NCBI RefSeq assembly: GCF_053078305.1
Contig: NZ_CP166875.1
DNA from: a plasmid
DNA: 64,000 nt
Reading direction: 5' to 3' (one strand)
Position 1 is the stretch's first letter, and every line of letters starts with the position of its first letter. The notes beneath the pieces were generated by a model. The model did no database searches, had not been told where the DNA came from, and saw only the letters and a list, made by a program, of their open reading frames with translations. Shown here in pieces: positions 2,189 through 37,890 of this stretch. The translations under genes and the position numbers were made by a program.

Positions 2189-4469
2189 TCCTGACCTCAT
2201 ACACCGCACGGCCTGGGGAAACCCGCTGTGGAATGCACTGCATAACCTGAACATCATTGGTCTGTGTCTGGCCGGCAGTATCATTACGGCCCTGATATGG
2301 CCACTGGCCCTTCCTGTCTGTCTGCTGTTCACCCTGGTCACCTCCGTGATATTCACGCTGCAACGCTGGCGATGCCCCCTGCGTATGCCCATGACGCTCA
2401 GCCTTGATGACCCCTCCCAGGACAGAAAGGTCAGGCGAAGCCTCTTCAGCTTCTGGCCCACCCTGTTTCAGTATGAAGCAGATGAAACATCCCCCGCACG
2501 GGGGATTTTTTATGTCGGTTACCGCCGTATCAATGATATCGGTCGTGAGCTCTGGCTGAGCATGGATGACCTCACCCGGCATGTCATGTTTTTTGCCACC
2601 ACCGGTGGCGGTAAAACAGAAACCACCTTTGCCTGGCTGCTCAACCCGCTCTGCTGGGGAAGAGGCTTTACCTTTGTTGACGGAAAGGCACAGAACGATA
2701 CCACGAGGACAATCTGGTATCTCTCCCGACGTTTTGGCAGGGAGGATGATATCGAGGTCATCAACTTCATGAACGGCGGAAAATCCCGCAGCGAAATCAT
2801 TCAGAGTGGCGATAAATCCCGCCCACAGTCAAACACCTGGAACCCGTTCGCATTCAGCACCGAAGCCTTCACCGCCGAAACCATGCAGTCCATGCTGCCC
2901 CAGAACGTTCAGGGCGGTGAATGGCAGTCACGGGCGATAGCCATGAACAAGGCACTGGTCTTTGGCACAAAATTCTGGTGCGTCCGGGAAGGTAAAACCA
3001 TGTCCCTGCAGATGTTACGGGAACATATGACGCTGGAAGGGATGGCAAAACTCTATTGCCGTGGCCTTGATGACCAGTGGCCGGAAGAAGCCATCGCACC
3101 ACTGCGAAACTACCTGCAGGATGTCCCGGGATTCGATATGTCACTGGTGAGAACGCCGTCAGCCTGGACTGAGGAGCCCCGTAAACAGCATGCTTATCTC
3201 TCCGGTCAGTTCTCGGAAACGTTCACAACCTTTGCCGAAACCTTCGGGGACGTCTTTGCGGCAGATGCCGGCGACATCGATATTCGCGACAGTATTCACA
3301 GCGACCGCATTCTGATTGTGATGATCCCTGCACTGGACACATCGGCCCATACCACGTCGGCACTCGGTCGTATGTTCGTCACCCAGCAGAGCATGATCCT
3401 CGCCCGTGACCTGGGCTACCGCCTGGAAGGCACAGATGCACAGACCCTGGAAGTCAAAAAATACAAAGGCAGCTTCCCCTATATCTGTATCCTTGACGAA
3501 GTCGGTGCCTACTACACAGACCGCATTGCTGTGGAGGCCACCCAGGTACGTTCACTGGAGTTTTCCCTGATAATGATGGCGCAGGATCAGGAGCGAATTG
3601 AAGGGCAGACCTCCGCCACCAACACCGCCACACTGATGCAGAACGCCGGCACCAAATTCGCCGGACGCATTGTCAGTGACGACAAAACGGCAAGAACGGT
3701 GAAAAATGCCGCCGGTGAAGAGGCACGGGCCAGAATGGGCAGCCTGCAGCGCCACGATGGTGTGATGGGTGAGTCCTGGGTGGACGGTAACCAGATCACC
3801 ATCCAGATGGAAAGCAAAATCGACGTGCAGGATTTGATCAGACTGAATGCCGGTGAGTTCTTTACCGTTTTCCAGGGGGATGTGGTGCCGTCAGCCTCTG
3901 TGTATATTCCGGACAGCGAGAAAAGTTGCGACAGTGATCCGGTGGTCATCAACCGCTATATTTCCGTTGAAGCCCCCCGGCTGGAGCGTCTCCGCCGTCT
4001 CGTCCCCAGGACAGTGCAGCGCAGGCTCCCCACACCGGAGCATGTCAGCAGCATCATCGGTGTACTGACAGCAAAACCATCCCGTAAACGTCGTAAAAAC
4101 CGTACAGAGCCTTACCGTATCATTGATACATTCCAGCGCCGGTTGGCAACAGCGCAGACATCACTGGATCTGCTTCCGCAATATGATACAGATATCGAAT
4201 CCCGGGCAAACGAACTGTGGAAAAAGGCTGTGCACACTATCAATAACACAACCTGGGAAGAACGCCGGGTATGTTATATCACACTGAATCGTCCGGAAGA
4301 GGAACACTCCGGTCCTGAAGATATACCTTCAGTAAAGGCGATTCTGAATACCCTGCTCCCCCTGGAGATACTGTTACCGGTCGCTGAAAATAATAAATCG
4401 CAGACAATAAATAATGATCATCCCCAGAAATCATGTGGAGCACAACCAACAACTGACGAAAAATACTGA
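2169..4469 (+). CDS. trbC: Type IV coupling protein (TrbC-like, VirD4/TraG-type ATPase)
   Basis: N-terminal transmembrane helices, Walker A (ATTGGGKTET) and Walker B-like (ICILDEVG); 766 aa; adjacent to relaxase operon. Confidence 0.6.
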   Translation: MSQHHVNPDLIHRTAWGNPLWNALHNLNIIGLCLAGSIITALIWPLALPVCLLFTLVTSVIFTLQRWRCPLRMPMTLSLDDPSQDRKVRRSLFSFWPTLFQYEADETSPARGIFYVGYRRINDIGRELWLSMDDLTRHVMFFATTGGGKTETTFAWLLNPLCWGRGFTFVDGKAQNDTTRTIWYLSRRFGREDDIEVINFMNGGKSRSEIIQSGDKSRPQSNTWNPFAFSTEAFTAETMQSMLPQNVQGGEWQSRAIAMNKALVFGTKFWCVREGKTMSLQMLREHMTLEGMAKLYCRGLDDQWPEEAIAPLRNYLQDVPGFDMSLVRTPSAWTEEPRKQHAYLSGQFSETFTTFAETFGDVFAADAGDIDIRDSIHSDRILIVMIPALDTSAHTTSALGRMFVTQQSMILARDLGYRLEGTDAQTLEVKKYKGSFPYICILDEVGAYYTDRIAVEATQVRSLEFSLIMMAQDQERIEGQTSATNTATLMQNAGTKFAGRIVSDDKTARTVKNAAGEEARARMGSLQRHDGVMGESWVDGNQITIQMESKIDVQDLIRLNAGEFFTVFQGDVVPSASVYIPDSEKSCDSDPVVINRYISVEAPRLERLRRLVPRTVQRRLPTPEHVSSIIGVLTAKPSRKRRKNRTEPYRIIDTFQRRLATAQTSLDLLPQYDTDIESRANELWKKAVHTINNTTWEERRVCYITLNRPEEEHSGPEDIPSVKAILNTLLPLEILLPVAENNKSQTINNDHPQKSCGAQPTTDEKY

Positions 4470-4504
4470 AGGAATACAAATATTTTCTGGTGACCATATC
4501 TGTC

Positions 4505-4545
4505 AATCCGACTGTAAAACCCTGTTCACTAAGTCCGGGGTTTTA
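4505..4545. terminator. Hairpin (aaaaccc...ggggtttt) between convergent trbC and nikB, probable bidirectional terminator
   Basis: Inverted repeat visible in intergenic sequence between convergent genes. Confidence 0.4.
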
Positions 4546-4689
4546 CGGCACACTGGATAAGGGCCGCAGACACGGCCCTTAATTCAGAGTTAACCGGGTA
4601 TAAACTCAATTCAGTGACTACTCCCGCCCTTATTGACGAAGGTTCCTGCCGTTTTGGGGCTGAATCTTTGCACCATCACTTATCCGGGC

Positions 4690-7410
4690 TTACATTCCAG
4701 GTGATGGTGGCTCCCATGTTTTCTCCTGCCGTAACGTATAATTATCATCATGGCTCTCCGATAAACGGGTCTGCTGTCTGATATATTCCCGGTAATACTG
4801 CTCACTGCGTTGACGGTGCAAATCCACGTCCGGACGAGTAATGGTGAAGTGTCCGTTTCCGGTTATTCCCGCTGCATTGTGCCAGGCCACCATTTCTGCA
4901 AACACATCATTAAACTGCTGGTATGAACCTTCCGGCTCAAAACCAAGCTTTCCGTTGCGGCTGAACAGAACTGGCGCAATTAAATCAAGCTTCTCTGCCA
5001 GTTCATTTCGGTCCGTGTGATGGTAGAACACAACCCGATCTCCGTAATCCGTACAGACATTTTTTCCTGTCCGCGTATCCCTGAAATGAACACTTCCATT
5101 TTTCTGAAGACGAGCTTCAAGTTTTGCAACATTATTAAAAAGTGGCGTTCCTCCGGGTTCGCAGAGTACGACACAACGATCAGCATTAGTTGTGCGTCTT
5201 TTATCCTTATTACGCGAGCGACGATCACGATAATCCCAGCCACGTAACTGCGATACTGCAGCCCTGTCTCCCTGAGCCGCCTGTTGTTCCACCCACTGCC
5301 GGTAGGACAAAGGATACCACTTACCCTCCGCAATCAGTGACAACCGCTCTTCCTTCACACTCTCCTTCAGCCTGATCAGCGCCTGCATACGCTGCACTTC
5401 CGCAATATGGTAATGCAGCTTACGCAATTGTGGATCCCGGAACTGCACACGGATATACGCCTTGCGCCGACGGCAGGCAGCATGAATTTCCCGTAACCGT
5501 TCTCCGTAACGTAAGTCGGGTTTACGCCAGTGCTCCTTCCATGCAAGATAACGCGCACGCAAATCTTCCCGCGCAGCTGCACGGGCTTCACGGCGCTCAC
5601 GACGAATCTCAGGATCGCGCCGGAAGCCTGGTTCCACTTCATCACTGGCAGCAAGTTCCGGATTGTAACGACATTCAGGCTTCACCCGTTCGAAAATATC
5701 TGCAGCCGCAATTTCAAATGGCCCGGCCTGAGGCTCGGCACGGGATAACGTCAAATCCGGGTGGATACTGCTGGCCTTCACCGGTGTCAGCTCATGATTA
5801 AACGCATCCACAATCACAAGACCATGATGCTGTTTCTGCAGCATAAGCCCTTTACGCGCAAACATCTCATGACATGCCTGCCAGCTGAAATCCCCGCCAG
5901 CTATCATCTCTTCAATCTGGCTCCTGCACTGAATAAGAGCGTATCCCCACAGACTTTCCTTATCGGAAAACAGTTCACGCTTTATAGCCCCCTGCGGACC
6001 TGTGCCCATCCTCATGCGATACCATTCGTAATCACTGACAGGCTGAGAGCCAATACTGTGTCCCCGGAATCGTTCTCCGGGAACGACCTGAGTAAAAATA
6101 TCCTTCGGTACAGGCTGCCATCCACCATCCAGATCCTGCATATAATCCAGCGTCATTAACGGCCACACACTGTCTGCACGTACTGGTGTCTGTTGTTTAT
6201 CAAATCCATCATGCAGTACCAGATGCCCGTGCTGAATCCCCATCCATAATCCCGCCTCTGCCAGAGTACGGTGTACAGCCAGGCAGCTTTTCAGTTCACC
6301 ATTGCGCGCCATTGCCGGTAAGCGTTCGGCAAAATGACGGCAGGCGTACTGTTTCAGACTCTCCGTTTCTGCCACTTTTTCCGGCCGGATATCAACGTTT
6401 ATGGCTTCCGGATCATAACGACCGGGTGTCCCCACCTGACTGAAAATATCTGTCGGTACAGGCTGATATTCCCCCAGTTTCCGCCCCAGTTTTTCAGCCG
6501 TCCATGACGGTCCGAACGAACTGAGTGCAACACCTTCCCGCGCTCTGTCCCAGCCATCCTTCACCACCAGTTCCCCTTCCTGCATCGTGATATACAGACC
6601 ATCGCTGGCCAGCCGTTTATGCAAAGATAACCAGTCCTGTGCAGGCTCTTCACGCAGCCCGGCAATCGACATCTGAGCAATATATTCCCTGAACGTCTGC
6701 TTTTTCCCGCGTCGCCAGGCATTACGGCGCTCACGTACCAGCGCTGTTTTGCGCACAATACGGTTGCCGGGTGCATGCACAAAGCAGCCATTATCCGGCG
6801 CGAATCCGTGCTTAAGTTCAAGTTCACGACATGCACGGCTGAGTTTTTCCTGGCTCCACGGAAGGCAATTGATATAGCCGGTTTCAGGGTGGACACGATT
6901 CACTGCAACATGTACATGCAGGTTATCCGTGTCTGTATGAACGGCTGCCACATACTGATGTTTTGACAGCTCAAGGGATTTCAGGGTGTGACGCACACAG
7001 TCAAAAAGCTGCTCAGAACGCGGACTTTCGTGCGCAGGCCAGGAGAGAATATAGTGAAAAACAGGATCTGTATCATCTTTGGAAAAATGAGCAAGGTCTG
7101 CTGCTTTCTGCATTTCTTCAGCCGCAGATTCAAGAGACAAACAGTTATGAAAGCAGGTCACACCATAGAAATTCACCCACTGACTGCCGTCTTTCATCAC
7201 ATCAATCAGGGAAACAAATTTTTCATTACGCAGACGTGTTGCATAATCAACAAGACGTCTGAAGCGATTCCGGTGCGGAACCTCACCTTTCACTTCCGTG
7301 TCTGGTCTGAGTTCATCTTCCGGCACATCATCCCGCACTGAGGTGTACGCAATCAGGTCTTCAAAAGAAGACTTTCCGTCGCGTCTTTTTTTCGGAATGA
7401 TGGCATTCAT
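4690..7410 (-). CDS. nikB: MOBP-type relaxase NikB
   Basis: 906 aa; N-terminal relaxase domain with HxDxxxxHxH-type motif (HTDTDNLHVHVAVNRVHPETG); directly downstream of nikA and oriT. Confidence 0.85.
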   Translation of the reverse strand: MNAIIPKKRRDGKSSFEDLIAYTSVRDDVPEDELRPDTEVKGEVPHRNRFRRLVDYATRLRNEKFVSLIDVMKDGSQWVNFYGVTCFHNCLSLESAAEEMQKAADLAHFSKDDTDPVFHYILSWPAHESPRSEQLFDCVRHTLKSLELSKHQYVAAVHTDTDNLHVHVAVNRVHPETGYINCLPWSQEKLSRACRELELKHGFAPDNGCFVHAPGNRIVRKTALVRERRNAWRRGKKQTFREYIAQMSIAGLREEPAQDWLSLHKRLASDGLYITMQEGELVVKDGWDRAREGVALSSFGPSWTAEKLGRKLGEYQPVPTDIFSQVGTPGRYDPEAINVDIRPEKVAETESLKQYACRHFAERLPAMARNGELKSCLAVHRTLAEAGLWMGIQHGHLVLHDGFDKQQTPVRADSVWPLMTLDYMQDLDGGWQPVPKDIFTQVVPGERFRGHSIGSQPVSDYEWYRMRMGTGPQGAIKRELFSDKESLWGYALIQCRSQIEEMIAGGDFSWQACHEMFARKGLMLQKQHHGLVIVDAFNHELTPVKASSIHPDLTLSRAEPQAGPFEIAAADIFERVKPECRYNPELAASDEVEPGFRRDPEIRRERREARAAAREDLRARYLAWKEHWRKPDLRYGERLREIHAACRRRKAYIRVQFRDPQLRKLHYHIAEVQRMQALIRLKESVKEERLSLIAEGKWYPLSYRQWVEQQAAQGDRAAVSQLRGWDYRDRRSRNKDKRRTTNADRCVVLCEPGGTPLFNNVAKLEARLQKNGSVHFRDTRTGKNVCTDYGDRVVFYHHTDRNELAEKLDLIAPVLFSRNGKLGFEPEGSYQQFNDVFAEMVAWHNAAGITGNGHFTITRPDVDLHRQRSEQYYREYIRQQTRLSESHDDNYTLRQEKTWEPPSPGM

Positions 7411-9284: not shown

Positions 9285-9645
9285 CGGGTCAGCCAGGTCA
9301 TTTCCCGGAGGAGCGAAGCTCCTTCTGCCGTCCGGGTCTTCGGGGATTTCCCCGCAGTGGACCTTTCCGATGGGGGCCCGTTTACCGCCTCACGGGACAG
9401 CTGTCCGGGGGCGGACGCAAAATTTTTAGCCGGGTTCATGGCTAAAAATTTTGTGGCCGGTGCATCTCACCCTGGACAGATGGAACGGGAGGGGGTTACG
9501 TCTGCCCCCTGGAAAGTCCACAGCGGGAAACAGGCCGCAGGGGTGGCGGCAGGAGGGAAGACTGCTGCGCCATCAGGCGCAGTTTCCTCACACACCGTCA
9601 GGTGTGCAGGGAGCGCAGGTCACGGCGCGACTGAAGAAAAACGAC
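9285..9645 (-). repeat. Repeat family A copy 1: GC-rich structured element (Frpo/ssi-like single-strand promoter candidate)
   Basis: Shares long near-identical blocks (ccgcagtggacctttccgatggg; cagctgtccgggggcggacgcaaaa; ggaaagtccacagcgggaaacaggccgcag) with copies at 12.7, 28.1 and 33.4 kb. Confidence 0.55.
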
Positions 9646-9719
9646 GGCACAACAATGGCATGTGGTGGTCACTGGCACACCACTCCCGCACAGGTGAAAA
9701 CAGAGAAAACCGCACGACA

Positions 9720-9835: not shown

Positions 9836-10087
9836 ATGACCGGCTGGGAACTGCGAATCTGGCGAAAAAGCATGCTCTGGTCACGCGAAAAAGCGGCCAG
9901 AGAATTTGGCGTGACGCAGAGAACATGGCACGCCTGGGAAAATGCGGAACAGGTGGATGTCACCGTCTGGAGGACCACCCAGGCACTTTCAGTCCGTGAC
10001 CTGCTGCCTCACATGCAGGGGATGCGTAAGGCAGATATCATCAGGCGTCTGGAAAATGAACTGGGGGAAACGGCAGGGAATGTGTGA
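9836..10087 (+). CDS. Small HTH DNA-binding regulator
   Basis: 83 aa; helix-turn-helix-like segment (REKAAREFGVTQRTWHAWE); preceded by palindromic operators. Confidence 0.45.
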   Translation: MTGWELRIWRKSMLWSREKAAREFGVTQRTWHAWENAEQVDVTVWRTTQALSVRDLLPHMQGMRKADIIRRLENELGETAGNV

Positions 10088-10117
10088 GCGTGATTCACAG
10101 CCTGGCTGAATGCCAGG

Positions 10118-10387
10118 CTACTGCTCATCAGGAAACAGCTTTTTCAGTTCTTCACCGGAAAGTCCCGTGACCTCCTGAATCCGTTCCGGCGGCCAGCCTA
10201 TATCCCGCAGCCGGCAGGCTATTTCCCGCGCCACTTCAAGAACCCCTTGTTTAAAACCTTCTTTAAAACCTTCTTTAAAACCCTCGTCGAAACCTTTCTG
10301 TATAAGACGTTCTGCAATCGTCATGCTGTTTGCTCTGCTCCTGCTGGCAAAAAAGCCCGGGATTTTGCCGGGCTTTGTGGTTCTCAT
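10118..10387 (-). CDS. Small protein resembling the C-terminal domain of Rpn nucleases, with KEGF tandem repeats
   Basis: C-terminus (ACRLRDIGWPPERIQEVTGLSGEELKKLF) parallels the C-terminus of the adjacent Rpn protein; 12-bp tandem repeats in DNA. Confidence 0.5.
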   Translation of the reverse strand: MRTTKPGKIPGFFASRSRANSMTIAERLIQKGFDEGFKEGFKEGFKQGVLEVAREIACRLRDIGWPPERIQEVTGLSGEELKKLFPDEQ

Positions 10388-11301
10388 CAGTGAGTGATTT
10401 TCTTCAGTTCGTCATCGGAAAGTCCGGTAGCCTGCTTAATCTGCTCCGGCGTCATCCCCATTTTCTGAAGCTGGCACGCAATAGCCAGGGCTTTTTCAAG
10501 CGCTCCTTCCATGCGTCCTTCCATCCTGCCTTCCTGGCGACCTTTTTGCTCAAGACGTTCTGCGATAGTCATCAGTTTATCCTCATGCTGCGGCAGACGC
10601 TCAGCCAGCGCCCGCATAAATTCCGGTGATACAGAGTCCCCTGCGTTAACGATGTAATGAATCAGAACACGCACCTGTTCATCTGAAATTTCCACCATGA
10701 CCTGCGGGAGTTTGTCCAGCAGCTCCATCATGTCACGATGGCGGATATGCTTCATCAGCAGCGTCAGTGCGGCCATCCGGCGATGGTTCATGATTTCATT
10801 GTCATCAACGACAGTGATATCAACCAGCGGAAACGGCTTTGTGTATATTTTAGCCGCAAGAGCCGGATTCTCAAAACAGCCCAGCCAGTTCATGCTGTAC
10901 GGGTACGGGCTGCGCTCACCGTGATAGAACAGCACCGGAATCACCAGTGGCAACGTTTTGTGCTGCTCCAGATGTCTCTGCATCGCCGCCACACTGTAAC
11001 GTAACATGCGAAAAGGCATGTACAGATTTTCGGTGCTCTGGTGCTCGATGAGCGTATAAACATAGCCGTCTTCACCCCCGGTGGTTTTCACGCTCCAGAG
11101 GATATCGCTGGCGTACTGATGCAGGTCCGGCTCTACAAAGGTGGCGGGTTCCAGCTTCAGCGTGGACAGGTCGCACAACTGCCGGTACTCCGCAGGAAGA
11201 TGCAGTTCCAGAAAATCTCTGGCGACGTCGGGATTCGCCAGGAACGACCGGAACGCGGCATCATGCGGCGTGGGCGTTGTGGTGTTTTTCTTCTTACTCA
11301 C
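10387..11301 (-). CDS. Rpn-family recombination-promoting nuclease (YhgA-like PD-(D/E)xK)
   Basis: 304 aa; conserved Rpn N-terminal nuclease region (FLANPDVARDFLELHLP...TLIEHQS) recognised from memory. Confidence 0.7.
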   Translation of the reverse strand: MSKKKNTTTPTPHDAAFRSFLANPDVARDFLELHLPAEYRQLCDLSTLKLEPATFVEPDLHQYASDILWSVKTTGGEDGYVYTLIEHQSTENLYMPFRMLRYSVAAMQRHLEQHKTLPLVIPVLFYHGERSPYPYSMNWLGCFENPALAAKIYTKPFPLVDITVVDDNEIMNHRRMAALTLLMKHIRHRDMMELLDKLPQVMVEISDEQVRVLIHYIVNAGDSVSPEFMRALAERLPQHEDKLMTIAERLEQKGRQEGRMEGRMEGALEKALAIACQLQKMGMTPEQIKQATGLSDDELKKITH

Positions 11302-11762
11302 GGTTCCTCCATCAAATCAGCAGCATCGCAGCAATCATCGCCCAAATCCCCACAACCGAGAGGACAGCAATTGCGTTCAAAGCCATGACAACAATAGCCG
11401 CGTTCTGAGTCACGGCGTATTTCTTCAGCAATCTCTTCTGCGGAAAGGTAATCAAACTCCTCACGGGCCAGTTCCAGGACCAGTAGATGTTGTTCTGTCG
11501 GCAATGTGGCCACAAAATTATCAATAGCAGCACTCAAACGTCGCTGATATAGCTCATAAACAAGACCACAACGGGGCATTAGTTCTTCGGATAATAGTTC
11601 CAGTTTTGAGCGAATTCTGTCAGCGTTGAAAGTGACTTCATCAAAAGACATATGAAAAGCTTTGTCAGTATCAAAACAAGACTTCATTGTTATCTCCAGC
11701 CCTCCCGGGCCCTGAATGAAAGAGAATCTGTTTCCCTTTTCTGTTTTTTGTGGAGACACCAT
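11298..11762 (-). CDS. Hypothetical leading-region protein with Cys-rich C-terminus
   Basis: ORF in leading orientation; no recognised domain; true start may be internal. Confidence 0.35.
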   Translation of the reverse strand: MVSPQKTEKGNRFSFIQGPGGLEITMKSCFDTDKAFHMSFDEVTFNADRIRSKLELLSEELMPRCGLVYELYQRRLSAAIDNFVATLPTEQHLLVLELAREEFDYLSAEEIAEEIRRDSERGYCCHGFERNCCPLGCGDLGDDCCDAADLMEEP

Positions 11763-11863
11763 GCAACACAGACGTCGTGATGTTTTTCATCTTGCTCACG
11801 GTTCCTCCTGGTAAAGTACCTGAACACATCCTGCCACCTGCACAGGCAGACGGCAGGGGTTAA

Positions 11864-12689: not shown

Positions 12690-13210
12690 GGGCCGACCGA
12701 TTGCTCCCCCGGAGGGGCGAAAGCCCCTTCTGCCGTCCACTTCTTCGGGGTTTCTCCCCGCAGTGGACCTTTCCGATGGGGCAGCGACAGCCACGGCACG
12801 GGGCAGTTGTCCGGGGGCAGACGCAAAAGTTTTTGACGCTTGCGGCAAAAAGTTTTGTGGCTGGTACATCTCCCCCCTGGACGGCTGACACGTGTTGTGG
12901 CCGCTTCAGCCCCCGGAAAGTCCACAGCGGGAAACAGGCCGCAGGGGTGGCGGCGGAAGGGCAGACAACTGCGCCATCAGGCGCAGTTTCCTTACACACC
13001 GTCAGGTGTGCAGGGAGCGCAGGTCACGGCGCGACAGAGGCGGCGCGACCGGAACGGTCGCTGCAAGCCTGGTTTTTCAGACATCGGACCGTAGCGGCAG
13101 CCCGAAACCGCGCCAGCGGGTTCGGCGGAGACTGGCGGGTGCGCCAGCAGCTGCCTGTCGGAGTCGGGCCTGACGACCGGATGCCGCCAGGCAGCCGGGA
13201 GCCGAAGGTG
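12690..13210 (-). repeat. Repeat family A copy 2 (Frpo/ssi-like candidate)
   Basis: Shares conserved blocks with copies A1, A3, A4. Confidence 0.55.
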
Positions 13211-16479: not shown

Positions 16480-16850
16480 CCTTCTCTTACAGAGGGCACC
16501 GGGAGGGCCCCCCTGTGGTGCCCGTTCCCCGCTGCCTGTGGGCTGTTCACCGCGTCCGGTAACGGGTCAGGCCGACCGTGGAATACCGCAGCCGTCGTCT
16601 TTTTGACGGCAAGGTTATGCCGCGAAAGCGGCTTGAAGGGCGTTCATCAGAAAAGGGCGACGGGCTGGCGTACACTGTCACCGGTGCCAGCCGGGAGCGG
16701 TAAAAGCGCCCGTCCCGTGCCCGGCCGGACGCGGGACACTGACCACAGGCAGCGTTTATGCCGCGCCGCGTCAGCCGGCGCAGTAAAAAGAGGAGCACGG
16801 CGACATCCTTTGTCGGAAAAGAAACGGGCGGTTGCCCGCCCGTCTCCGTC
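16480..16850 (-). repeat. Repeat family C copy 1 (about 330 bp GC-rich structured element)
   Basis: Near-identical to 17795-18125. Confidence 0.6.
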
Positions 16851-17794: not shown

Positions 17795-18125
17795 CACAGG
17801 AGCACCGGGAGGGAGCCCCTGTGGCGCCCGTTCCCCGCTGCCTGTGGGCTGTTCACCGCGTCCGGTAACGGGTCAGGCCGACCGTGGAATACCGCAGCCG
17901 TCGTCTGTTTGACGGCAAGGTTATGCCGCGAAAGCGGCTTGAAGGGCGTTCATCAGAAAAGGGCGACGGGCTGGCGTACACTATCACCGACGCCAGCCGG
18001 GAGCGGTAAAAGCGCCCGTCCCGTGCCCGCCGGACGCGGGACACTGACCACAGGCAGCGTTTATGCCGCGCCGCGTCAGCCGGCGCAGTAAAAAGAGGAG
18101 CACGGCGACATCCTTTTCCCCTGAA
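17795..18125 (-). repeat. Repeat family C copy 2
   Basis: Near-identical to 16480-16850. Confidence 0.6.
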
Positions 18126-28856: not shown

Positions 28857-29015
28857 CTACTTACCGGATTCGTAAGCCATGAAAGCCGCCACCTCCCTGT
28901 ATCCGTCTCTGTAACGAATCTCGCACAGCGATTTTCGTGTCAGATAAGTAAATATCAACAGTGTGAGACACACAATCAACACACACCAGACAAGAGAGCT
29001 GCGTGGTAGTTTCAT
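28857..29015 (-). CDS. hok: Hok/Gef-family type I toxin (FlmA/Hok-like)
   Basis: 52 aa [52 protein letters not shown]; adjacent to psiA. Confidence 0.85.
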
Positions 29016-29289
29016 GGCCTTCTTCTCCTTGCGCAAAGCGCGGTAAGAGGCTATCCTGATGTTGTCAGACATATGGGATGCCTCGTGGGTTAATGAAAAA
29101 TTAACTACGGGGCTATCTTCTTTCTGCCACACAACACGGTAACAAACCACCTTCACGTCATGAGGCAGAAAGCCTCAAGCGCCGGGCACATCATAGCCCA
29201 TATACCTGCACGCTGACCACACTCACTTTTCCTGAAAATAACCCGCTCATTCAGGCTGTTTACGGGTAATCTGTGTGATTGTTGCCGCA

Positions 29290-35335: not shown

Positions 35336-35746
35336 GCACATTATATTCAGCGCCACATCCGGTAGCCTGCGATATAACACAGTTATCCTGTCAGTAAGAG
35401 CAGGTATGATGAATACACGGAGATTAAAAATATAATCTCCGTCACATGTTACCCCCGGAAACCGGTAACGCCGTCACGGGAAAGACGTGACAGAAAAAGC
35501 AGCCTCCGTTACTCCAGGTATCAGAAGGCTGAATAATGCATGAGACTTTCTTTCTTATGTGTCTGGTCAGGCTGGCTGACCAGCGTTTTTAGTAACACAT
35601 AGCCATATGTGTATTAAGCCACCTCATCTTATTTTGTTGAATTGATCACAATTCAACGGTTTATTTTTGGCGTGATGTGTGAGCCGTTATTCATCCCGGC
35701 ATGGAATTCATGCAATAACGAAAAGTAATCAGTGACGGAGAGTAAA

Positions 35747-36694: not shown

Positions 36695-36973
36695 CGCCTT
36701 CGCGTTGCTCAGTTGTCCAACCCCGGGGACGGGAAAAAGCAAGTTTTCCCCGCCCCCGGCGTTTCTGTAGTGAAAAGCGGGAAATGGAGGGAATGGTCAG
36801 TAACAGGGAATGTGGTATTATCGCGGCGGGTGTCTGAGCCTTTCTGGTTCAGGCAAGACGCAGGTACTAGAAATGCGAAGACCCCACTTGTTAATCCATT
36901 AACTCGTGAGGCCTGCATGAAGTACTTGAACACTACTGATTGTAGCCTCTTCCTTGCAGAGAGGTCAAAGTTT

Positions 36974-37123
36974 ATGACGAAATATGCCCTTATCGGGTTG
37001 CTCGCCGTGTGCGCCACGGTGTTGTGTTTTTCACTGATATTCAGGGAACGGTTATGTGAGCTGAATATTCACAGGGGAAATACAGTGGTGCAGGTAACTC
37101 TGGCCTACGAAGCACGGAAGTAA
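36974..37123 (+). CDS. srnB: Hok/Gef-family type I toxin (SrnB/PndA-like)
   Basis: 49 aa MTKYALIGLLAVCATVLCFSLIFRERLCELNIHRGNTVVQVTLAYEARK; leader ORF starts at about 36917. Confidence 0.75.
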   Translation: MTKYALIGLLAVCATVLCFSLIFRERLCELNIHRGNTVVQVTLAYEARK

Positions 37124-37754: not shown

Positions 37755-37850
37755 GTTCTGATGTGGATGTACAGGAGCCAGAAAAGTGAAAACCCCGATA
37801 ATCTTCTTTAACTTTGGCGAGTGAGAAAGATTACCGGGGCCATCTAAAAA
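37755..37850 (-). ncRNA. copA: CopA-type antisense RNA (replication control), inferred
   Basis: Imperfect long stem-loop (ccccgataatctt...aagattaccgggg) in the repA leader between copB and tap; position as in IncFII replicons. Confidence 0.4.
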
Positions 37851-37890
37851 CCGTATAGCCAACAATTCAGCTATGCGGGGAGTATAGTTA

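Follow-up and report, generated by a model that had tools for sequence, protein, structure and literature searches.

The small gene behind plasmid rpnP2 as the terminal unit of an array of Rpn C-domain cassettes

Rpn toxin–antitoxin modules and the plasmid locus

Rpn genes encode both halves of a toxin–antitoxin pair. RpnL is a DNA endonuclease, and RpnS, its C-terminal three-helix domain made alone, binds RpnL through a long, repeat-bearing first helix and blocks it (PMC10400941). The plasmid-encoded RpnP2 has been shown to be a toxin and a phage-defence nuclease (Zhong et al., PNAS 2023, PMC10400941): RpnP2-L of ECOR13 is toxic but is neutralised by RpnP2-S, and together they confer protection against T-even phages. 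RpnP2 without the internal start (iTIS) is toxic, RpnP2-LS is non-toxic, and the published RpnP2 construct was both non-toxic and protective against phage (PMC10400941). RpnA-S and RpnB-S do not cross-protect, for RpnC a single-repeat mismatch abolishes inhibition, and variation in the number of 4-aa repeats of Rpn proteins has already been described (PMC10400941). The same study reported internal transcription start sites for chromosomal rpn genes, and rpnSs genes that lie separately downstream, for example ypaA behind rpnE; RpnC-Ss and RpnE-Ss group closest with the RpnS of their own upstream gene (PMC10400941). Beyond Zhong et al. and its commentary, literature searches brought up no further work on rpnSs and none on Rpn in the leading regions of plasmids.

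The locus described here lies in a window of 64,000 nucleotides (contig NZ_CP166875.1), the leading region of an E. coli plasmid of IncI type. The initial annotation of this DNA had placed a 304-aa Rpn nuclease at 10387-11301 and an 89-aa product, regarded as a paralogue of its C-terminal domain, at 10118-10387; both are indeed minus-strand open reading frames with these boundaries. The arrangement of rpn with a downstream rpnSs is thus correctly recognised but was already described in 2023 and hence is not new (PMC10400941). Over 2 kb, the DNA around the two genes shows 100% identity with IncI-type plasmids, in which the small gene is annotated as 'RpnC/YadD family protein', and the locus is the RpnP2 toxin–antitoxin and anti-phage module carried in the leading region of a conjugative plasmid of IncI type. 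PADLOC 2023 had no model for any gene at the locus and returned only weak, chance-level matches.

The nuclease (10387..11301, minus strand; RefSeq WP_021540571.1) is an allele of rpnP2 encoding the PD-(D/E)XK toxin RpnP2-L. Residues 11-207 match Pfam Transposase_31 (PF04754; E=1.2e-77), and the score against TIGR01784 is 178.4 bits, with a cutoff of 52.1. Scores against the K-12 equivalogs RpnA and PRK09956 (319 and 328 bits) stay below their cutoffs of 583; the protein belongs to a separate plasmid lineage, RpnP2, outside the K-12 equivalogs. Its residues 1-133 equal the RpnP2 gBlock of Zhong et al. with the exception of four engineered active-site changes. Since the N-terminus differs from the gBlock only at these sites, the catalytic D14, D66, E86 and Q88, which are the four positions altered in the published inactive '+M' gBlock, are intact. 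The ECOR13 RpnP2-LS locus (PMC10400941) has the same gene and the same downstream sequence, which takes in the beginning of the small gene (primer AO619). It differs in that the window allele has an extra 129-aa open reading frame inserted upstream, and in that the published construct ends 101 bp past rpn, cutting the small gene after 13 codons.

On sequence grounds, the rpn gene of the window carries its own cognate inhibitor within the gene, from ATG 10572, a start that the initial annotation had overlooked. This frame, rpnP2-S (10387..10572, minus strand; internal start ATG 10572-10570), encodes a 61-aa antitoxin beginning MTIAERLEQKG. The start stands in the context GAGGA-TAAACTG-ATG, with a Shine–Dalgarno (SD) motif at 10580-10584, 7 nt upstream, and by position and sequence it matches the iTIS published for all Rpn proteins (PMC10400941). 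The 85-nt context upstream of the internal start is kept in all surveyed loci. Further upstream in rpn, a consensus scan (10/12 matches) found a promoter-like site, TTGAGA-16-TAAAAT (10847..10874, minus strand), a candidate internal promoter for a transcript covering S and Ss. An ssDNA-promoter-like element at about 12700-13060, upstream of the locus, may also drive it.

Start, leader and fold of the small downstream gene

The similarity between the small protein and the Rpn C-terminus holds on pairwise alignment. BLASTP aligns residues 22-84 of the 89-aa product with Rpn residues 244-302, 35 of 63 being identical (56%; E=1e-17), and sets Met22 opposite M244 of Rpn. At the DNA level the homology between the small gene and the rpn 3' end extends over this ATG and some 20 nt in front of it. 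The 89-aa product proposed initially therefore stands as a reading frame and in its similarity but not in its first 21 codons, as the similarity begins exactly at Met22 (MTIAERL) and the extension is probably not coding. The real product is probably a 68-aa protein read from ATG 10324. Homology, annotation and pN/pS point to this coding sequence (rpnP2-Ss, 10118..10324, minus strand; MTIAERLIQKG), a free-standing HTH_Rpn_C protein of what we call type S. About half of the database homologues are annotated from this methionine, and the start codon is kept in 9 of 10 head variants. The 21-codon extension (10325..10387, minus strand; included in RefSeq WP_032072251.1) is absent or in another frame in variants P0058, P0087, P0094 and P0108 and in locus L004, and its mean column entropy is 0.52 versus 0.31 for the core. 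The Rpn stop overlaps the first ATG of the longer frame in the sequence TGATG (10385-10389); translational coupling of the 89-aa form through this overlap was considered and is less likely, given that the extension varies in frame and sequence. The AGGAG at 10338-10342, 13 nt before ATG 10324, is a poorly spaced SD motif.

The extension spans a terminator-like hairpin, AAAGCCCGG-caaaauc-CCGGGCUUU-UUU (10349..10376, minus strand), with a 9-bp stem in the folded RNA followed by a U-run, located between the rpn stop and Met22 of the small gene; the extension is probably a non-coding leader. The hairpin is conserved in front of each of the free-standing cassettes; it shows a single compensatory change, from A-U to G-C, and is flanked by indels on either side. 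The consensus terminator scan missed it because the stem runs into the U-run, and it was found by folding and by comparison of the leaders. At the other end of the gene a perfect 8-bp hairpin, aGCCTGGC-tgaat-GCCAGGCt (10099..10119, read off the sequence), overlaps the stop codon and separates the small gene from a convergent gene for an 83-aa helix-turn-helix protein (9836..10087, plus strand; RefSeq WP_000148286.1). The convergent gene adjoins the small gene in nearly all surveyed loci reaching that far, typically with a gap of 30 nt; this usual neighbour is missing in L034, for which no helix-turn-helix gene was called, and in L051, in which an IS21 element comes next.

The proposal of a free-standing C-terminal-domain paralogue is borne out by the alignment and by the family alignment, and a three-helix model, whose top though not significant match is RpnA-S, agrees with it. 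The C-terminal part of the small protein matches TIGR01784 (E=5.4e-6). A Pfam-A scan of the small protein itself gave nothing significant; close homologues carry precomputed matches to PF27070 (HTH_Rpn_C), and the alignment puts the protein in a wide family of small proteins with G-hydrophobic-x-x repeats. The AF2 model of the 68-aa protein (pLDDT 67) has helices at residues 3-41, 46-53 and 57-63, and its top Foldseek match is the crystal structure of E. coli RpnA-S (7th0), a three-helix bundle with a long first helix; the probability is 0.89 and the TM score normalised to the target 0.72, with an E of 0.96. The next matches are DNA-binding helix-turn-helix domains, e.g., Hin and TetR N-domains, and all fold matches, at E of about 1, are not significant. 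Searched by sequence, the PDB gave only designed repeat proteins for the 68-aa product and not RpnA-S, which the fold search recovered. The small proteins of the HTH_Rpn_C (PF27070)/DUF4351 type have a long G-hydrophobic-x-x repeat helix, two short helices and a TGLS..E motif at the end; the protein, with the same domain and such helices in its model, is no different in kind.

The gene is very probably a free-standing, diverged paralogue of the RpnP2 C-domain of the known rpnSs type. Like rpnE-ypaA (rpnE-Ss) and rpnC-Ss of E. coli chromosomes, it repeats the Rpn C-domain immediately behind the nuclease gene, in the same orientation, and starts with MTIAERL; as in rpnE-ypaA, where YpaA equals RpnE-S plus one unit, it differs from the intragenic copy in its 4-aa repeats. 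YpaA is, however, 75% identical to RpnE-S, whereas the window copy, at only 56%, is much more diverged. In addition, ypaA begins 12 nt after the stop with a duplicated ribosome-binding site of the iTIS, whereas the window copy has a 63-nt leader with a conserved hairpin and lies in an array able to hold two free cassettes.

Repeats, cassettes and selection

The tandem repeats noted initially in the small gene do consist of 12-bp DNA units (Tandem Repeats Finder, 12-bp x3.2, 96% matches, 10245-10282). The array (10245..10296, minus strand) has four units, GFDE-GFKE-GFKE-GFKQ, and in the 68-aa form the 4-aa repeats begin at residue 11. This agrees with the RpnS and RpnSs proteins, whose 4-aa repeats (one hydrophobic residue plus charged or Gly) begin 8-20 residues after the Met and vary in number between strains. 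Among 120 cluster representatives, repeat segments of 9, 13, 17, 21 and 25 aa, i.e., 2-6 units, occur 7, 77, 31, 3 and 2 times, respectively. The rpnP2 gene has a corresponding array of three units, GRQE-GRME-GRME (10505..10534, minus strand; Tandem Repeats Finder, 12-bp x2.5), and alleles on other plasmids with 0, 1, 2 or 3 units give Rpn proteins of 292, 296, 300 or 304 aa. The repeat number of the small gene was counted as unmatched to that of the adjacent Rpn C-domain in 11/11 distinct combinations, listed as A3/S4, A2/S4, A1/S4, A2/S3, A0/S6, B3/S3 (equal as written), B4-5/S3, B6-7+A2/S5, C3/S4 and C5+A1/S3.

The letters in this list stand for types of C-domain, of which B and C were recognised from the tails of the open reading frames upstream. 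RpnP2-L of the window ends in an HTH_Rpn_C domain of type A. In the non-repeat part, the four types A, B, C and S lie at nearly the same distance from one another (14-23/36 identical), type A being the nearest to the small-protein domain (19/36). In the window and in L001-4, L011-12 and L031-40, the type A domain is fused to Rpn; in L013/14 and L041-50 it stands free behind the same hairpin leader, with Rpn-B or Rpn-C on one side and the S cassette on the other. In L053 an A/S chimera is joined at the shared TGLS segment and the small gene is deleted. The small gene stands last in a tandem array of cassettes, each a C-domain with a hairpin leader. Two processes shape the evolution of the array, 12-nt slippage (2-6 units) and homologous recombination between cassettes.

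A survey of other loci, suggested with the initial annotation, found the same layout, with the small gene directly downstream of rpn on the same strand. The exceptions, such as L031, L051 and L053, are truncated or rearranged, and some plasmids, e.g., that of L053, have lost the small gene. The gene occurs on 2002 PLSDB plasmids, 1879 of them conjugative, in Escherichia, Salmonella, Shigella and Klebsiella, and its commonest variants (470, 247, 98 and 60 contigs) are all intact. The pN/pS of its non-repeat codons is 0.22 versus 0.38 for the Rpn N-domain, a ratio by which the small gene is under purifying selection.

The role of the small protein

The initial annotation suggested an inhibitor or partner of the nuclease. 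The class of the domain agrees with this, as RpnS binds and blocks RpnL (PMC10400941), but the part of a primary inhibitor fits poorly: the truncated published construct, the repeat mismatch, and the terminator-like hairpin with the poorly spaced SD motif all argue against it. The small gene is dispensable for neutralisation in the published construct; since this construct is non-toxic without an intact copy and the repeat numbers are unmatched, the small gene is most probably not the main inhibitor. The explanation that we moderately favour combines an rpnSs-type paralogue, a cassette array and an accessory RpnS-like partner. The Ss protein would be made at a low level through read-through of the hairpin and would dimerise by helix 1, as RpnS does. 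Such a protein could be an accessory RpnS-like partner, or a non-cognate one, and could tune the antitoxin pool or back it up, while RpnP2-L would be restrained by an inhibitor other than Ss. Taken by itself, the assignment as an accessory partner is plausible but tentative. Against this explanation, too, weigh the unmatched repeat numbers, the non-toxic and phage-protective construct with its truncated small gene, the distant SD motif behind the hairpin, and the absence of a full-length Rpn with an S-type domain among the best 120 of 337 homologues.

The cassettes could instead be a reserve of specificities, a stock of alternative C-domains swapped into the expressed rpn by homologous recombination, perhaps promoted by Rpn, so that toxin and antitoxin specificity change together as in pilE/pilS. 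We regard this as unlikely, although type A does occur both fused to Rpn and free-standing behind Rpn-B and Rpn-C with the same leader, the L053 junction lies in the shared TGLS segment, the hairpin and the weak SD motif are low-expression features, and a fusion of the rpn N-domain with rpnSs regions was mentioned by Zhong et al. (PMC10400941). The events seen so far are deletions, neither reciprocal nor reversible switches, and the pN/pS of the small gene suggests that the protein itself is in use. Moreover, the best 120 of 337 homologues of the small protein are all small, and no full-length Rpn with a complete S-type domain, which would be the cognate toxin, is among them; the best full-length representatives reach only 44-50% identity. 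Judging from these homologues, the terminal cassette is consequently rarely or never a donor. No S cassette was seen as a complete fused domain. As an analogy only, Neisseria pilE/pilS and the IncI shufflon likewise pair an expressed gene with partial copies further downstream that have conserved flanks in common and recombine with it. In the window array, however, no dedicated recombinase or site was identified, the rpn array has given only deletion and fusion products, and its cassettes carry their own start codons. A bolder version is more doubtful still. It holds that the free-standing HTH_Rpn_C cassettes behind rpnP2 on IncI-complex plasmids would be a selected specificity-switching system, in which cassette recombination, possibly Rpn-triggered, swaps the toxin C-domain and the intragenic antitoxin together, and the terminal S cassette, always kept on this view, would be a lasting anchor or decoy whose expression from the leading region begins early in recipients.

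That the small protein is the dedicated inhibitor of the adjacent nuclease, in a classic two-gene toxin–antitoxin pair, is very unlikely. Domains of its class are proven antitoxins of Rpn nucleases (PMC10400941), and the gene is adjacent, on the same strand, with the TGATG overlap with the rpn stop. Nevertheless, the cognate antitoxin is intragenic, from the iTIS at 10572; RpnP2-LS without an intact small gene is non-toxic and becomes toxic on removal of the iTIS (PMC10400941); the repeat numbers are unmatched in the combinations counted; and some plasmids (L053) lack the gene altogether. Only 19 of the 36 non-repeat residues are shared, and RpnA-S and RpnB-S fail to protect across systems (PMC10400941).

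Even less likely is an independent small helix-turn-helix regulator recruited from the antitoxin domain, a homodimeric three-helix protein that binds DNA and controls transcription of the leading region or of rpn. The fold matches to Hin and TetR N-domains after RpnA-S, the relatedness to helix-turn-helix motifs noted with HHpred by Zhong et al. (PMC10400941), and the lack of a cognate toxin among the best 120 of 337 homologues speak for it; yet every one of those fold matches is insignificant, no operator-like repeat was identified, and protein binding is the only demonstrated activity of the domain. Least probable of all is that the gene is a decaying, untranslated and functionless remnant of an rpn 3' end that was duplicated in tandem, for although the gene sits behind a terminator-like hairpin with a weak SD motif, RefSeq lists K-12 ypaA as a pseudogene and some plasmids have lost the small gene, its pN/pS is low, its frame is intact in the common variants on about 2,000 plasmids of the four genera, its start codon is conserved, and tagged YpaA protein is detectable (PMC10400941).

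To the described rpn–rpnSs layout the present analysis adds the probable 68-aa start, the conserved leader hairpin, purifying selection, the plasmid spread, the cassette array and the repeat-number mismatch, and it does so in the one Rpn system with a demonstrated anti-phage effect, from whose published constructs the downstream rpnSs copy had been cut. Purifying selection, a repeat number unmatched with the neighbour and the constant terminal place in the array suggest that the small gene is more than a redundant antitoxin. Its role would help to explain the diversification of Rpn toxin–antitoxin specificity, as well as the place of the module in the early-expressed leading region of resistance plasmids.

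Identity and plasmid setting of the nuclease gene

The nuclease gene of the window (304 aa, 10387–11301, minus strand) is, judging by its sequence, RpnP2. Its residues 1–133 equal the RpnP2 gBlock in the oligonucleotide table of the Zhong et al. preprint (PMC10327210, supplement 3), apart from four engineered active-site substitutions; as these are the only differences, D14, D66, E86 and Q88 are intact in the window Rpn. The protein carries a YhgA-like PD-(D/E)XK domain (PF04754, E=1.2e-77), scores over the TIGR01784 cutoff and is labelled an Rpn family nuclease in RefSeq; family-model scoring did not assign it as an RpnA or RpnB equivalog. The small ORF that follows (89 aa as first called, 10118–10387, minus strand) is labelled 'RpnC/YadD family protein' (WP_032072251.1), and its ATG shares bases with the rpnP2 stop (TGATG). 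The locus is securely identified as the toxin–antitoxin and defence module RpnP2, followed downstream by a paralogue of rpnSs type.

Three E. coli plasmids match the 2-kb stretch round the locus at 100% identity, and 1,489 RefSeq records, nearly all of them plasmids, have matches to it. In pDW54_2 a relaxase with nikA-type MobA, a DUF4942 gene and a convergent HTH gene precede the small ORF and the Rpn gene, beyond which lie hypothetical genes, ArdA, PsiA/PsiB and a ParB-like gene. The locus lies in the leading region of a conjugative plasmid of IncI type, and plasmids with this locus have the types IncI-gamma/K1, MOBP and MPF_I. Gathering-level Rfam matches at 29013–29184, 35428–35570, 36828–36984 and 37784–37874 are ordinary plasmid features (two sok antitoxin RNAs, AS-pc02 antisense RNA and a CopA-like replication-control RNA).

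Two direct repeats of ~330 nt, 85% identical, lie at 9300–9680, upstream of the DUF4942 gene, and at about 12700–13060, upstream (for minus-strand transcription) of the gene string ending in rpn and the small gene. The plus strand of the first copy, folded as single-stranded DNA, gives a long, imperfectly paired hairpin (-107 kcal/mol, z=-8.9), and we take both copies to resemble Frpo/ssi-type single-strand promoter elements. A second pair in the leading region (16496–16811 and 17802–18116, ~315 nt, 97–99% identical) is spaced 1.3 kb apart. The stop of a Cys-rich acidic ORF (129 aa, WP_000833767.1, 11298–11687, minus strand), for which a search for a family match found none, overlaps the rpn GTG start. 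Some IncI plasmids carry this ORF; others, including the ECOR13 RpnP2 gBlock, lack it. Since its upstream border is a 79% copy of the rpn ribosome-binding site and first 15 codons (11757–11808 versus 11259–11310), the arrangement at 11298–11808 suggests that the ORF was inserted into an rpn 5' end that had been duplicated.

Internal antitoxin and the published construct

Full-length Rpn (RpnL) is a toxic DNA endonuclease, which is bound and blocked by RpnS, its variable C-terminal domain translated alone from an internal start (Zhong et al., PNAS 2023, PMC10400941). RpnS forms a three-helix bundle that dimerises via a long first helix bearing 4-aa repeats; the repeat number differs among strains, and a repeat added to one partner only, as tested for RpnC, abolished inhibition (PMC10400941). 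RpnS can also come from a gene of its own, on chromosomes or on plasmids, for example ypaA (rpnE-Ss) after rpnE and rpnC-Ss after rpnC, and deletion or fusion to the rpn N-terminal region can remove such copies (PMC10400941). The initial annotation had overlooked the internal start in rpnP2: an ATG at 10572, with GAGGA 7 nt before it, predicts a 61-aa RpnP2-S. The context of this start is invariant across all surveyed loci, and a promoter-like site lies within rpn at 10847–10874.

RpnP2 gave E. coli protection from T-even phages; RpnP2-LS, which was protective and not toxic, became toxic when the internal start was removed (PMC10400941). The construct includes just 101 bp 3' of rpn, and its reverse primer AO619 anneals to ...CTTATACAGAAAGGTTTCGACG (PMC10327210), which corresponds to small-gene codons 7–13 numbered from Met22. 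The small gene was thus truncated in all RpnP2 experiments, and RpnP2-LS protected without toxicity even so.

Extent, similarity and repeats of the small gene

The initial annotation placed both frames correctly, and the C-terminal similarity that it had noticed holds on pairwise alignment (35/63 identical, E=1e-17, BLASTP). The match starts at Met22 of the small product, equivalent to Met244 of the large one, and DNA-level homology takes in this ATG and ~20 nt upstream. Tandem Repeats Finder recovered the reported 12-bp units of the small gene (x3.2, 10245–10282, encoding GFDE-GFKE-GFKE-GFKQ) and a 12-bp array within rpnP2 (10505–10534, GRQE-GRME-GRME).

The 89-aa frame exists; its first 21 codons are, we think, non-coding, and the product is likely 68 aa (10118–10324). 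We think so because this stretch contains a GC-rich stem of 9 bp with a U-run behind it (10349–10376, minus strand). The hairpin is kept in the leaders of all free-standing cassettes, where it shows a single compensatory change (A-U to G-C), and its flanking bases carry frame-shifting indels. Moreover, the extension is missing, shorter or out of frame in five variants (P0058, P0087, P0094, P0108 and L004), its mean column entropy as protein is 0.52 versus 0.31 for the core, and MTIAERL is the annotated start in about half of the homologues. An SD-like AGGAG lies 13 nt ahead of the shorter form's ATG, and no promoter-like site was found between rpn and the small gene; expression would therefore need read-through at the hairpin and is likely to be low. 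A perfect 8-bp hairpin (GCCTGGC-tgaat-GCCAGGC plus a closing A-T pair, 10099–10119), without a T-run on either side, overlaps the small-gene stop codon in the 30-nt gap to the convergent 83-aa HTH gene.

A survey covered 50 further loci. The Rpn-fused C-domain occurs in three diverged types: A (the window's), B (GIQKGIQQG...RMEEKQDIARQLQKTGMPSAQICQITGLS) and C (GIQQGIQQG...ALQKAREIARELRNAGMPTAQICQLTGLS); the S type with GF repeats is always last and always free-standing. The four are nearly equidistant (14–23/36 identities outside the repeats), and neither the best 120 of 337 homologues nor the representative library included a full-length Rpn that carries a complete S-type domain. Repeat numbers of the Rpn C-domain and the small gene do not match across loci: A3/S4 (window), A2/S4, A1/S4, A2/S3 and A0/S6; B3/S3, B4-5/S3 and B6-7+A2/S5; C3/S4 and C5+A1/S3. 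The mismatch extends to the type example, as K-12 YpaA exceeds RpnE-S by one 4-aa unit (KLEG); there (3905–5002 of the K-12 locus) ypaA starts 12 nt after rpnE with the internal-start ribosome-binding site duplicated (AAAGGAGAGATTAATG). RefSeq marks ypaA as a pseudogene and describes rpnE as 'inactive'.

Twelve loci (L013/14, L041–50) hold a free A cassette that follows a type C or type B Rpn and precedes the S cassette, both cassettes with the same hairpin leader, and the window form would be the expected product of the N-domain fusing to such an A cassette. A 299-aa Rpn (NZ_CP027601.1, 975–1874), whose A-type domain ends in the small protein's last 12 residues (...ATGLS|GEELKKLFPDEQ), is a recombinant in which the small gene has been deleted. 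In one locus (L031, 2501–2731) the small gene is kept and rpn is reduced to its 3' part, the N-terminal half being replaced by a DUF1281/DinI/peptidase S24 region. That free cassettes are chiefly recombination substrates for swapping the specificity domain is the main rival to an accessory protein function, though we regard it as rather unlikely.

Possible roles of the small gene

 

The small-gene sequence is carried by 2,002 of 72,556 PLSDB plasmids, 1,879 of them conjugative, with Escherichia (1,435), Salmonella (403), Shigella (105) and Klebsiella (50) as hosts. Among 5.8 billion proteins searched, 337 homologues were found; the best 120 are small proteins throughout, with lengths in four-residue steps and repeat segments of 2, 3, 4, 5 and 6 units in 7, 77, 31, 3 and 2 cases, respectively. 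Four proteins of the representative library (P0133, P0136, P0149 and P0204; 220–720 aa) have 3–8 tandem matches to the small protein and are polyproteins of repeated HTH_Rpn_C-like units.

The AlphaFold2 model (51-sequence alignment, pLDDT 67) predicts a long helix (3–41) and two short ones, and its top-ranked PDB match is E. coli RpnA-S (7th0); for a fold as small as this, the E of ~1 is not significant. Recruitment as a DNA-binding HTH regulator is possible. A strict two-gene toxin–antitoxin pair, with the small protein restraining the nuclease, is a further possibility and corresponds to the inhibitor half of the original inhibitor-or-partner proposal; speaking against it are the intragenic RpnS, a published construct in which the small gene was dispensable, mismatched repeat numbers and weak expression signals. 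A decaying remnant is possible too, but the gene is retained near-universally and is under purifying selection (pN/pS 0.22 over 51 non-repeat codons in ten DNA alleles, versus 0.38 for the Rpn N-domain).

Zhong et al. (2023, PMC10400941) already describe this kind of arrangement, the variation in repeats, the domain's function as an antitoxin, and the fusion or deletion of rpnSs copies. The accessible text of that paper does not include the conserved hairpin leader, the probable start of the 68-aa form, the three-plus-one domain types and two-cassette arrays of the RpnP2 locus, the repeat mismatch as a systematic feature or the removal of the small-gene copy from the tested constructs. We tentatively favour, at somewhat under even chances, an accessory role, in which the small gene would supply, at a low level, a dimerising protein similar to RpnS that adjusts the antitoxin pool or serves as its reserve.
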